Notes: a model not told the origin generated them from the letters alone. A stretch of DNA of 64,000 nucleotides from Patescibacteria group bacterium (GCA_038206475.1 JBBRAU010000001.1:3317-67316), one strand, 5' to 3'; numbered from the stretch's first letter, positions 9,429 to 60,051 are shown. Numbers and translations are program-made.

Positions 9429-10040
9429 ATGAGCCAACTGCTCGAATTTTTGGCCAACCTCGTCATATCTGTCATCAGCCACAGCGGGCTGCTGGGAGTG
9501 GCCGGCTTGATGACCCTAGAGTCGACCGGCATTCCCATTCCGTCTGAGGTGATTATGCCTTTTGCCGGTTTCCTGGCCGCAAATGGCCAATTGAGCTTTT
9601 GGTTGGCGGTTCTGGCCGGAACAATCGGCAATATAGCCGGCAGTCTGGTTGCTTATTATATTGCCGCCGTTGGCGGCCGGTCGCTAGTGGAGCGCTACGG
9701 TCGAGTTGTACTGCTATCCAAACGTGATTTAGACCAGAGTGAGCAGTGGTTCAAACGCTATGGCGGTCCGATGGTGCTCGTTGGCCGGCTGCTGCCCATT
9801 ATCCGTACCTACATCTCCTTTCCGGCCGGCCTGGCTGAGATGCCGCTTGGGCCATTTGTGGCTTACACTGCCGTGGGTTCGCTGTTTTGGTCCTGGTTGC
9901 TCGCTTGGTTTGGGTTCACCGCTGGCAACAACTGGGAGGCGCTGCGTGGCCGTTTCCATGGCTTTGACACCGCTATTGCGGCGCTGATTATGCTGGGCAT
10001 TATCTGGTGGATTTGGCGCCATGTGCGATCCTCCCATTGA
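9429..10040 (+). CDS. DedA/SNARE-associated (TVP38) family membrane protein
   Basis: Conserved E..GIPIPSE..G motif and TM topology. Confidence 0.8.
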   Translation: MSQLLEFLANLVISVISHSGLLGVAGLMTLESTGIPIPSEVIMPFAGFLAANGQLSFWLAVLAGTIGNIAGSLVAYYIAAVGGRSLVERYGRVVLLSKRDLDQSEQWFKRYGGPMVLVGRLLPIIRTYISFPAGLAEMPLGPFVAYTAVGSLFWSWLLAWFGFTAGNNWEALRGRFHGFDTAIAALIMLGIIWWIWRHVRSSH

Positions 10041-10191
10041 CAGCACAACATCTATGAGCCGCTGGCACGAACGCGTGCTTGACAGACAAGAGGCTAATGT
10101 CTAGCCTATACTTGATGAACGTCTACACCACATCGCTTCTGCTGGCTCTTACCCATCCGCGACGCGGTTAGTTTTCACCTACCGGAAAACA

Positions 10192-10216
10192 AGAACCGCG
10201 TCAGCGGTTTTTTGTT
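10192..10216 (+). terminator. Rho-independent terminator
   Basis: aaccgcg tca gcggtt followed by T6. Confidence 0.5.
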
Positions 10217-10245
10217 TCCCCATTTGTTCCTGAAGGGAAACGGAA

Positions 10246-10497
10246 ATGATTGCCGTCCGCACCTCGCCGTCCGACGATCCTCGGGCAAGTGATCTGGTCT
10301 TGATGGTGGTCAAACTGCTTCGCCGCAGCATTATCGAGCAGATGGTCCATGTTACTTTCACCGGTAACGCGCTTGAGATTGCAGTTGATGCCAACCAAAT
10401 CGTTATCACGGCGCCGGAAGCGGCCCGCTGTGATGAAGCGATCTTCTCTCACACGGTCCTCACAGTGGCCGAGCGGCTGCGCGGGAAGCTGATCTAG
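10246..10497 (+). CDS. Hypothetical small protein (83 aa), ends 6 nt before a tRNA-like gene
   Basis: SD AAGGGA 7 nt upstream. Codon usage is coding-like. No detectable family. Confidence 0.3.
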   Translation: MIAVRTSPSDDPRASDLVLMVVKLLRRSIIEQMVHVTFTGNALEIAVDANQIVITAPEAARCDEAIFSHTVLTVAERLRGKLI

Positions 10498-10503
10498 CGG
10501 CTT

Positions 10504-10580
10504 GAGGAGGTGGTCGCAACAGGCAGCGACGGAGGGCTGAGGACCCTCAGGCGTCGGTTCGAACCCGGTCCTCCTCACCA
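10504..10580 (+). tRNA. Atypical tRNA, anticodon GAG, class I shape (4-nt variable loop), A73, encoded CCA
   Basis: Manual cloverleaf fold. Acceptor gaggagg/cctcctc. D-stem gucg/cgac. Anticodon stem gaggg/cccuc with loop CUGAGGA (U33, G37). T-arm gucgg-UUCGAAC-ccggu. 3'-terminal ACCA. Confidence 0.5.
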
Positions 10581-10583
10581 CTT

Positions 10584-10613
10584 TCCCTTCGCCAACCGCG
10601 AGGGGATTTTTTT
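10584..10613 (+). terminator. Rho-independent terminator after the tRNA(GAG)
   Basis: tcccttcg ccaacc gcgagggga followed by T7. Confidence 0.55.
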
Positions 10614-10825
10614 ATGCCAATCCATTGGAGCCCGGCTTTTCTGGTTATCCCACGTCAAGCAGGCAACCTCTTGACAATCCGCTTGACTGGGTTAAGCTAT
10701 TTTCATGGTCACGTCATGCCGTCTCGACCACGTCTTTACCCAGGCCTCCGTCTGGCAGATTCGTTTTGCCAATAACAAGACGGGGTGTGCGGCGCTGTAA
10801 TCACACGATTTCCTCTGTGTTACAC

Positions 10826-10854
10826 CGCGCCGCTCCCACGAGCGGCGTTTTTTA
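10826..10854 (+). terminator. Rho-independent terminator
   Basis: cgccgctc ccac gagcggcg followed by T6. Confidence 0.55.
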
Positions 10855-10878
10855 GCTCATTGATTGCAATCAATGAGC
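10855..10878. promoter_or_regulatory. Perfect 24-bp palindrome GCTCATTGATTG/CAATCAATGAGC (candidate operator)
   Basis: Exact reverse-complement symmetry. Lies between a terminator and two SD-preceded small ORFs. Confidence 0.5.
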
Positions 10879-10937
10879 ACACCCGAGCGTTTTGCCCCTC
10901 GATAACCTGCGCCACCCGTCTCAGAAGGGAGACATCT

Positions 10938-11117
10938 GTGGACCAGCTGATCACGAAATCGGCCAAACAACCCGCGCAGCCGCTGGATGTGAAGCCGGAA
11001 GACATCCAGCACAACGGCGACAAAGAGCGGTGGCGTGGTCTGCCGCTGCGGATCGACCCACACACCAAGTGCCTGACTCTGGCTCCACTATCGCGCTGCG
11101 TCGCTAGCGCCTGGTAA
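10938..11117 (+). CDS. Small hypothetical protein (59 aa, GTG start)
   Basis: SD GGGAG 6 nt upstream of the GTG. In frame with track ORF 10785..11117, but the upstream part of that ORF contains the terminator and palindrome. Confidence 0.3.
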   Translation: MDQLITKSAKQPAQPLDVKPEDIQHNGDKERWRGLPLRIDPHTKCLTLAPLSRCVASAW

Positions 11118-11129
11118 AGGAGATTCCTC

Positions 11130-11297
11130 GTGGACAACAACCGGGACAACTGGCGCATTCTCCGCACCGAACAGGTACGAGAAAAACCGCGTAACGCCAT
11201 CAATCCAGACGCCACGCGTGAACAAAAGCCCCCTCCGTCCAAGGTGTCCAACAAAGCGCGCGACCGCGTCAAAGACTGCTGCTATTTTACGCACTAG
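11130..11297 (+). CDS. Small basic hydrophilic protein (55 aa, GTG start)
   Basis: SD AAGGAG 7 nt upstream. Followed by an intrinsic terminator. Confidence 0.3.
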   Translation: MDNNRDNWRILRTEQVREKPRNAINPDATREQKPPPSKVSNKARDRVKDCCYFTH

Positions 11298-11307
11298 CAC
11301 TACTCTC

Positions 11308-11337
11308 AGGCCAAGGTAAAACCTTGGCCTTTTCTTT
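11308..11337 (+). terminator. Rho-independent terminator
   Basis: ggccaagg taaaa ccttggcc followed by ttttcttt. Confidence 0.55.
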
Positions 11338-59465: not shown

Positions 59466-59963
59466 ATGGAGAATGGCGGGAGAAATCCTAACACGCAATG
59501 CTACGTTTGCGCCAAGCCAATCTATAAGCGCCCCTGGGAATTGCAACGCTACAAGTCCGTTTATTGTTCGCTGGCCTGCTATCATTCGACGATCAGACCG
59601 ATATCAAAACGTTGCCCTATTTGCCAGCAGGATTTTAAGCCCTGGAGGCCGATTGCCAAAACCTGTTCTCGAAGTTGCGCTAACATATCTCGCCGTGGAG
59701 GCAAATATTCCAAAGAGTCCTGTGGCAATTACTCCCGCCACAATCTAGAAACACTGAAGTTGGCCTTTGACTTTCAGGAATGCATGATTGTCGGCTGCAG
59801 TTACAAGAAGACGTTCGACATTCATCGCTTGATCTCCGGCAAATCCGGCGGTAAATACGAAATTGGCAACATGTATGCCATCTGTCCCGATCATCACGCG
59901 GAAGTTTCACGTGGATCAATTGCGCTGGAGAAAATAGCTGACGATCAACTGCGAATTATGTAG
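59466..59963 (+). CDS. HNH endonuclease with N-terminal Cys-rich zinc ribbons
   Basis: HNH core CMIVGCSYKKTFDIHRLISGKSGGKYEIGNMYAICPDHHAEV. Several N-terminal CxxC pairs. Confidence 0.75.
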   Translation: MENGGRNPNTQCYVCAKPIYKRPWELQRYKSVYCSLACYHSTIRPISKRCPICQQDFKPWRPIAKTCSRSCANISRRGGKYSKESCGNYSRHNLETLKLAFDFQECMIVGCSYKKTFDIHRLISGKSGGKYEIGNMYAICPDHHAEVSRGSIALEKIADDQLRIM

Positions 59964-59966
59964 CCC

Positions 59967-60051
59967 GGAGGGTAGTGCGAGTGGCTCGCAACTGGTCTTG
60001 AAAACCAGACCGGCCGCAAGGCTGAAGGTTCGATTCCTTTACCCTCCGCCA
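59967..60051 (+). tRNA. tRNA-Ser (UGA)
   Basis: Manual fold. Acceptor ggagggu/acccucc, anticodon loop cuUGAaa, long variable arm, G73-CCA. Begins 4 nt after the HNH stop. Confidence 0.85.

Follow-up and report, generated by a model that had tools for sequence, protein, structure and literature searches.

A tRNA gene with a GAG anticodon and a 4-nt variable loop in a Patescibacteria genome: a candidate type I tRNA-Leu

The stretch of DNA analyzed here, 64,000 nucleotides in full and referred to as the window, is chromosomal, with genes for DnaX, GroEL, GluRS, SHMT and a PilB-type ATPase. The M16 peptidase and GroEL encoded in it have Patescibacteria as their best named relatives, which places the host in the Patescibacteria/CPR. 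A tRNA gene with a GAG anticodon, hereafter tRNA(GAG), lies between a DedA-family gene and the M16 peptidase gene, where conserved genes are lacking over 1.3 kb. Nearby genes encode PAP2, UppP, the DedA-family protein (VTT domain) and a glycosyltransferase of family 4 (PF00953, MraY-type), as well as the M16 peptidase and NDK. The locus contains the following features, all on the plus strand.

10083..10112, plus strand: weak sigma-70-like promoter match, CAGACA-18-TATACT, 9 of 12 positions matching the consensus
10157..10217, plus strand: upstream intrinsic terminator, a hairpin (13+6 bp) followed by UUUUUUGUUU; MFE of -44 kcal/mol for 10113-10250, z -3.2
10209..10246, plus strand: 12-bp hairpin predicted by single-sequence folding, in which the U-rich tail of the terminator pairs with GGGAAACGGAAA
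10246..10497, plus strand: ORF83, called as the gene of an 83-aa orphan protein, with a predicted beta-alpha-beta-beta-beta-alpha fold
10498..10503, plus strand: 6-nt spacer in the sequence, cggctt, with U at -1
10504..10580, plus strand: tRNA with anticodon GAG, a 4-nt variable loop, a D-stem extendable to 5 bp, G37, A73 and CCA (ARAGORN, Rfam and reading of the sequence)
10584..10613, plus strand: predicted downstream intrinsic terminator, a 9-bp stem with six G-C pairs and a T7 run

The promoter match, with a TTGACA at 10079-10084 beside it, is the only candidate start site 5' of the ORF83-tRNA unit and precedes the upstream terminator; it is a match to the consensus only, and CPR promoters may differ. 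The hairpin of the upstream terminator occupies 10157-10207 and is followed by U6, and its inner stem (10194-10209) can terminate transcription on the minus strand too. Between this terminator and tRNA(GAG) no promoter-like site was recognized. The upstream leader had no Rfam match to a known riboswitch or T-box and folds as one long terminator hairpin rather than as an obvious switch, and we set such a role aside. The two flanking promoter/terminator units were also considered as paralogous repeats and rejected, as there is no real similarity between them.

An initial annotation had described a small ORF with a Shine–Dalgarno sequence, ending 6 nt before the tRNA, and had placed the pair between two intrinsic terminators as an mRNA–tRNA co-transcript. 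The 83-aa ORF at 10246-10497 is present, its TAG stop ending at 10497, and both terminators were found, the upstream one being larger than first described. The Shine–Dalgarno sequence proved weak (AAGGG, 10233-10237, about 8 nt before the ATG), and the predicted hairpin at 10209-10246 spans both this motif and the start codon, so that it could possibly occlude translation of ORF83. The spacer separates the stop codon from the 5' end of the tRNA, and RNase P is expected to cut at the spacer–tRNA junction. The hairpin of the downstream terminator (10584-10606, followed by T7) starts 4 nt past the CCA. Given this layout of ORF, 6 nt, tRNA, 4 nt and terminator, with no promoter in between, co-transcription is the simplest reading, and a shared transcript for ORF83 and tRNA(GAG) is plausible. 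The arrangement itself is not special: another tRNA, at 59966-60051, begins 3 nt past the stop codon of a 165-aa ORF, and because the junction recurs at 59963/59966, such tight packing appears to be an ordinary habit of a compact genome. A familiar parallel is the thrU-tyrU-glyT-thrT-tufB operon of Escherichia coli, in which tRNA genes are co-transcribed with a protein gene. The ORF83 unit would resemble it in having a shared transcription unit and release of the tRNA by RNase P and 3' processing. In the tufB operon, however, the tRNAs precede the protein gene whereas here the tRNA follows the ORF, and for ORF83 the co-transcription is inferred.

ARAGORN calls positions 10504-10580 (plus strand) a 77-nt tRNA-Leu with anticodon gag. 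The Rfam tRNA family RF00005 matches 10504-10577 over its full length (model positions 1-71 of 71) with 49.0 bits, 20 bits over the gathering threshold of 29 (E = 1.9e-07, computed over the 64-kb window); this is the lowest Rfam score among the four tRNAs of the window. Both predictors thus accept the 77-nt cloverleaf that the initial annotation had proposed, where they might have rejected it or reassigned the anticodon, and both return GAG. The acceptor stem, GAGGAGG/CCUCCUC, consists of seven Watson–Crick pairs out of seven, including G1:C72 as the first pair and a G-C pair at 3:70, and the acceptor/T branch is 7/5. U8, G9 and G26 are present. The D-stem, GUCG/CGAC, can be extended to 5 bp by one additional, off-consensus C-G pair placed between 13:22 and A14. 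This extension leaves a canonical-looking 8-nt loop, AACAGGCA, with G18 and G19, and A14 is in register only if the extra pair forms. The anticodon stem is GAGGG/CCCUC with the loop CUGAGGA (U33, GAG, G37), and the variable loop, AGGC, is 4 nt long. Two of the five pairs in the T-stem, GUCGG/CCGGU, are G-U wobbles (G49-U65 and U50-G64). The T-loop is UUCGAAC, the discriminator is A73 and CCA is encoded, as in all four tRNAs of the window.

The nucleotides that support tertiary folding, namely U8, (A14), G18-G19, U33, G53-C61, U54-U55-C56 and A58, are all present, while A occupies position 15 and C position 48, and A20a is absent from the D-loop. With a 5-bp D-stem, the cloverleaf has a predicted energy of -28.9 kcal/mol, compared with an MFE of -33.8. 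The combination of a class I shape with a Leu anticodon, which the initial annotation had emphasized, is real and unusual, and the extendable D-stem and the two T-stem wobbles add detail to that first description. A second assembly from the same organism (Logan contig L014) is 99.9% identical over 898 nt and contains an identical tRNA(GAG), and the gene is thus not an assembly artefact. We conclude that the tRNA gene at 10504-10580 is real and well formed, if unusual in shape. The Logan contig starts at window position 10427; that assembly therefore breaks inside ORF83, 77 nt 5' of the tRNA, possibly because of low coverage or strain variation there.

CTC (357) and CTT (217) codons make up 3.55% of the 16,159 codons in the 43 long ORFs of the window. 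Of 119 homologues of the M16 peptidase, 113, 114 and 119 have Leu in the columns where CTC codons fall. In an alignment of 119 GroEL homologues, Leu is the majority residue in the columns of nine of ten CTC/CTT codons, and no conserved column of another residue contains such a codon. Since both codons align with conserved Leu, a reassignment of CTC/CTT can be ruled out: the genetic code is standard, and CUY means Leu here. Because CUC and CUU are frequent and mean Leu, the cell needs an efficient, Leu-charged CUY decoder, and a well-expressed but mis-charged GAG tRNA would be costly, as about one codon in 28 would be damaged. ARAGORN found no other tRNA-Leu within the 64-kb window, which also lacks the LeuRS gene; a canonical class II tRNA-Leu(GAG) may be present elsewhere in the genome.

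Several features of tRNA(GAG) point to leucine. Apart from position 34, its anticodon loop, CUGAGGA, matches that of class II tRNA-Leu(UAG) from related Patescibacteria, CUUAGGA. A G37 beside G36 is typical of CUN-reading tRNAs. The gene combines a Leu anticodon (of the NAG/NAA set) with A73 and with the G37 expected of CUN readers. Its 4-nt variable loop falls short of the arm of at least 10 nt that characterizes class II tRNA-Leu; a Leu anticodon together with a short variable loop instead describes a type I tRNA-Leu. According to published identity sets, Ala identity can be rejected for lack of G3:U70, and Ser identity for lack of a long arm and of G73 (PMC9976931). Identities read through the anticodon are likewise excluded, as A35-G36 suits none of the synthetases concerned (PMC9976931). 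[quoted passage not shown] The A15-U48 Levitt pair and A20a are also E. coli LeuRS elements (PMC9976931), whereas tRNA(GAG) has A15 but C48, and no nucleotide 20a. It thus departs from the E. coli LeuRS preference in its extra D-stem pair, A15/C48, missing A20a and two T-stem wobbles.

A precedent for leucylation without a long arm exists in Streptomyces coelicolor, whose type I tRNA-Leu(CAA), with a variable loop of 5 nt, is leucylated by the organism's single LeuRS (Fan et al. 2019, PMC6614811). The statement of the initial annotation that bacterial tRNA-Leu is class II therefore stands as a rule, to which the S. coelicolor tRNA is a published exception. Because the other identity sets do not fit, because A73 and an intact D/T elbow are present, and because of the S. 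coelicolor precedent, type I tRNA-Leu(GAG) is the likeliest identity. Overall, we give about an even chance to the reading that this is a genuine tRNA gene, seen so far in one lineage only, and most likely a type I tRNA-Leu(GAG).

The two tRNAs were likened by features: both are bacterial and share a Leu anticodon, a short variable loop and A73, but one is CAA in Actinobacteria and the other GAG in Patescibacteria. In S. coelicolor, tRNA-Leu(CAA) occurs alongside class II Leu tRNAs, and the length of its variable loop, 5 nt compared with 4 nt in tRNA(GAG), is reported to matter (PMC6614811). The extra D-stem pair is found in tRNA(GAG) and not in the S. coelicolor tRNA. Animal mitochondrial type I tRNA-Leu also lacks the long arm and is recognized through A73 and A14 (PMC9976931); in contrast to tRNA(GAG) it is organellar, A/U-rich and structurally relaxed and has its own LeuRS, and there is no visible link of descent between the two.

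A closer comparison is possible with the class II tRNA-Leu(UAG) genes that lie about 1.4 kb 3' of groEL in related Patescibacteria (L020, 12979-13067, and L023, 13018-13104); in the window there is no tRNA at the matching place downstream of groEL. They have in common with tRNA(GAG) A73, U8, G9, the AAC.GG.A core of the D-loop, an anticodon loop of the form CU-NAG-GA with G37 and A38, G30-G31/C39-C40, an encoded CCA and five of the seven acceptor pairs. They differ in having a variable arm of 13–17 nt, absent from tRNA(GAG), and a D-stem of 3 bp with an 11-nt loop, compared with 4–5 bp and 8 nt in tRNA(GAG); position 48 is U rather than C, and the T-stems differ. By hand count, tRNA(GAG) is about 61% identical to these tRNAs and about 47% identical to the tRNA-Gln of the window, which is weak evidence from few sequences.

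The same class I shape, including the D-arm, would also be expected if a tRNA with a different identity, such as Pro (GGG), Val (GAC) or Phe (GAA), had acquired GAG as its anticodon; it would then insert an amino acid other than Leu at CUC/CUU. The purine-rich acceptor GAGGAGG is atypical of tRNA-Leu: a search of JGI metagenomes for the acceptor together with the T-loop, with the length of either class allowed, yielded three genes in all, each an organelle-like class II tRNA-Ser(GCU). We nevertheless consider a shifted anticodon unlikely, since CUY codons are frequent and clearly mean Leu. Val, Phe and Ile tRNAs carry A37, and the G37 of tRNA(GAG) speaks against an origin from any of these. 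Positions 35 and 36 are wrong here for ProRS, ValRS, PheRS and IleRS, all of which read them; G1:C72 is not the bacterial Pro signature; G3:U70, a long arm and G73 are all lacking; and no dedicated synthetase gene adjoins tRNA(GAG).

Natural tRNAs with mismatched anticodon and identity do exist, and two of them offer comparisons. The (8/4) allo-tRNA(GAG) inserts Ser at CUC in E. coli and is, like tRNA(GAG), a bacterial tRNA with a GAG anticodon and a non-standard cloverleaf (Mukai et al. 2017, PMC5389517). Allo-tRNAs, however, combine a long variable arm with a branch of 8/4 or 9/3 and are of Ser identity; with its 7/5 branch and 4-nt variable loop tRNA(GAG) is not one of them. The Streptomyces tRNAProX/ProRSx pair comprises a class I tRNA with the anticodon of another amino-acid family, which keeps its Pro identity elements and is served by a dedicated ProRS paralogue (PMC10404621). 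Neither of these is seen for tRNA(GAG), and a tRNAProX-type assignment was rejected in view of G1:C72, A35-G36 and neighbors that encode DedA, UppP, the M16 peptidase and NDK.

A second tRNA of unusual shape was observed elsewhere in the window. The gene at 59966-60051 (plus strand) is called tRNA-Ser(UGA) by ARAGORN and scores better on the Rfam tRNA-Sec model (53.3 bits, threshold 47). In its fold, stems of 8 bp (acceptor), 6 bp (D, closed by a 3-nt loop), 5 bp (variable) and 4 bp (T) give an 8/4 shape like that of allo-tRNA or tRNA-Sec, yet the anticodon is that of an ordinary tRNA-Ser, with G73 and CCA; the gene can also be read as a canonical 7/5 tRNA. The 165-aa ORF that ends 3 nt before it (59466-59963, plus strand) is Cys-rich and has an HNH-like C-terminus.

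To search for homologues of tRNA(GAG), species genomes in GTDB were scanned with the pattern GCTGAGGAC-N11-12-GGTTCGAANCC, which sets the anticodon arm at class I distance from the T-loop. The scan returned 13 loci, with about eight estimated by chance, and no homologue of tRNA(GAG) among them. Three of the 13 are class I GAG tRNA-like genes (L001, in a Chloroflexi array; L007; L008), with an acceptor and D-arm unlike those of tRNA(GAG), and partly degenerate. The Chloroflexi array (L001 18-245, from MAG JACRBR010000093.1) consists of closely spaced tRNA-like genes. The first is a class I tRNA with a GAG anticodon, with 46.6 bits, a G2-G71 mismatch and no encoded CCA; a tRNA-Met and a third tRNA-like sequence follow. 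IMG/VR yielded no tRNA matches in five scans, whose queries were the entire tRNA, its anticodon arm, its 3' half and its 5' part, and blastn of tRNA(GAG) had no significant match in phages, plasmids or E. coli.

Orthologous loci were reached through homologues of the M16 peptidase and GroEL. In the closest available relative (L015, L055), GroEL is 84% and the M16 peptidase 66% identical, and the M16–NDK–glycosyltransferase–GroES–GroEL block is kept. Its syntenic locus has no tRNA in the 34 kb read, and other small genes lie 5' of the M16 gene; in more distant relatives, the context upstream of the M16/GroEL block differs. The interval 10040-11324 is non-syntenic, with orphan small ORFs and structured RNAs. 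The initial annotation had made conservation of the fold in orthologous regions a test of its proposal, and on this count the outcome is negative, as the syntenic locus of the closest relative lacks the tRNA and no scan returned a homologue. With no homologue and an empty syntenic locus, there is neither covariation support nor a sign of purifying selection. This lack of conservation argues for a lineage-specific gene, not against its being a tRNA.

The same observations would also be consistent with a decaying or silent tRNA gene, a relic of insertion or duplication at a synteny breakpoint that is barely expressed or uncharged. The gene has been found in one organism only, lies in a non-syntenic interval and sits behind a strong terminator with no recognizable promoter. 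Its D-arm is off-consensus, A and C occupy 15/48, and the T-stem has two wobbles; the other class I GAG tRNA-like genes in GTDB are degenerate, with acceptor mismatches or sub-threshold scores. Against decay stand the fully Watson–Crick acceptor, the integrity of every universally conserved nucleotide, the encoded CCA, an Rfam score well above threshold and a terminator placed precisely 4 nt past the CCA. Against insertion, no att-like repeat of the tRNA 3' end was found within the window, the G+C content at tRNA(GAG) is that of its surroundings, with no anomaly, and there was no viral or plasmid match. A silent gene is a real possibility, though one to which we give distinctly less weight than to a type I tRNA-Leu. 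The suggestion that the locus might be associated with a mobile element or have a regulatory role gained no evidence; for a mobile element, there was no att-like repeat, no compositional shift and no phage-family match.

ORF83 is regarded as a gene for a real orphan protein on the strength of its codon usage, which scores 0.368 log-odds per codon compared with a mean of 0.332 in genuine genes. None of 870 off-frame segments reaches this value, which rules out a spurious ORF. A homologue search of the kind recommended at the outset was run over both proteins and profiles and came back empty. HMMER against 1.84 billion representative proteins returned ORF83 itself only, and nothing significant was found in Pfam, NCBIfam or PHROGs, the best match being Pfam LHD_TRPY1 at E = 0.032, which falls short of its cut-off. 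Among PDB sequences, the best match (uL18/L5, E = 0.71) was not significant, and look-ups of the exact products of ORF83, DedA and UppP found none on record. An 83-aa gene after groEL in the closest relative was considered as a homologue and is unrelated. The AlphaFold model, built from the single sequence, is of moderate confidence (pLDDT 74.6, pTM 0.61), and its predicted fold weakly resembles the ribosome hibernation factors HPF/RaiA. As the HPF/RaiA (Ribosomal_S30AE) profile gave no Pfam or NCBIfam match to ORF83 even at E up to 10, we treat this modeled resemblance as a lead only.

The tight coupling of the tRNA to this orphan ORF, with its weakly HPF/RaiA-like predicted fold, raises the alternative of a non-decoding role, either as an aminoacyl donor to an envelope- or peptide-modifying transferase or in the regulation or processing of the ORF83 transcript. 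The envelope-related neighbors (PAP2, UppP, the DedA-family protein and the MraY-type glycosyltransferase) are in keeping with the former. The T-stem region tunes EF-Tu binding, and the two G-U pairs of tRNA(GAG) lie within it. Yet no gene of the Fem, MprF or L/F-transferase type and no cyclodipeptide synthase gene was recognized nearby, the adjacency to ORF83 means little when ORF–tRNA packing recurs at the unrelated locus 59963/59966, and the anticodon loop is indistinguishable from that of a decoding tRNA. We therefore regard a non-decoding role as very unlikely.

A type I tRNA-Leu(GAG) would be expected to act as follows. tRNA(GAG) would form the 3' part of a transcript shared with ORF83, or result from read-through that starts further upstream. 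RNase P would release it 6 nt past the ORF83 stop codon by cutting after U-1, the terminator 4 nt beyond the CCA would end the transcript, and the 3' end would be trimmed to the CCA. LeuRS would then charge it with leucine, TrmD would methylate G37 in its G36-G37 context, and the tRNA would decode CUC and CUU as Leu. What is observed comprises the gene with its cloverleaf, anticodon and flanks, together with the frequency of CUY codons and their meaning as Leu; from these we infer expression, processing, charging with Leu and a role as either main or extra CUY decoder. Two further-reaching versions can be formulated. In the first, tRNA(GAG) would be the organism's only CUY decoder, and a LeuRS outside Streptomyces would rely on a tRNA-Leu without a long arm; we put this forward tentatively, as possible but doubtful. 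In the second, tRNA(GAG) would be expressed and charged, but not by LeuRS, or would be diverted from EF-Tu, leading to programmed substitution at CUC/CUU or to a non-ribosomal supply of aminoacyl groups. This we consider quite unlikely, and the version with a sole CUY decoder is the more likely of the two.

To our knowledge, Leu tRNAs without a long arm are absent from bacteria in textbook accounts. The only studied bacterial case is that of Streptomyces, whose LeuRS shows adaptation to it. On present evidence, tRNA(GAG) is most likely a lineage-restricted variant of the rare bacterial type I tRNA-Leu, a single-genome observation known at present from sequence alone. If confirmed, it would be a second, unrelated case, in a minimal-genome CPR bacterium, and would bear on how freely the long arm can be lost and on how LeuRS recognition co-evolves with that loss. 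With its 4-nt variable loop and extended D-stem, it would also offer tRNA engineering a natural scaffold of compact size. If it were instead charged with another amino acid, it would constitute a natural mistranslation system acting on 3.5% of codons.

The DNA just downstream of the tRNA(GAG) unit contains further elements. Positions 10671-10860 (plus strand) comprise a promoter-like TTGACA, then an RNA of about 150 nt that is predicted to be strongly structured (z -4.1), with its terminator at 10827-10848. No Rfam family matches this possible small RNA. Directly past this terminator lies a perfect 24-nt palindrome, GCTCATTGATTG/CAATCAATGAGC (10855-10878), a possible candidate for a protein-binding site. 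Finally, a perfect 14-nt inverted repeat links the 3' end of ORF83 (10472-10485) to the inside of a small ORF at 10938-11117 (10971-10984).
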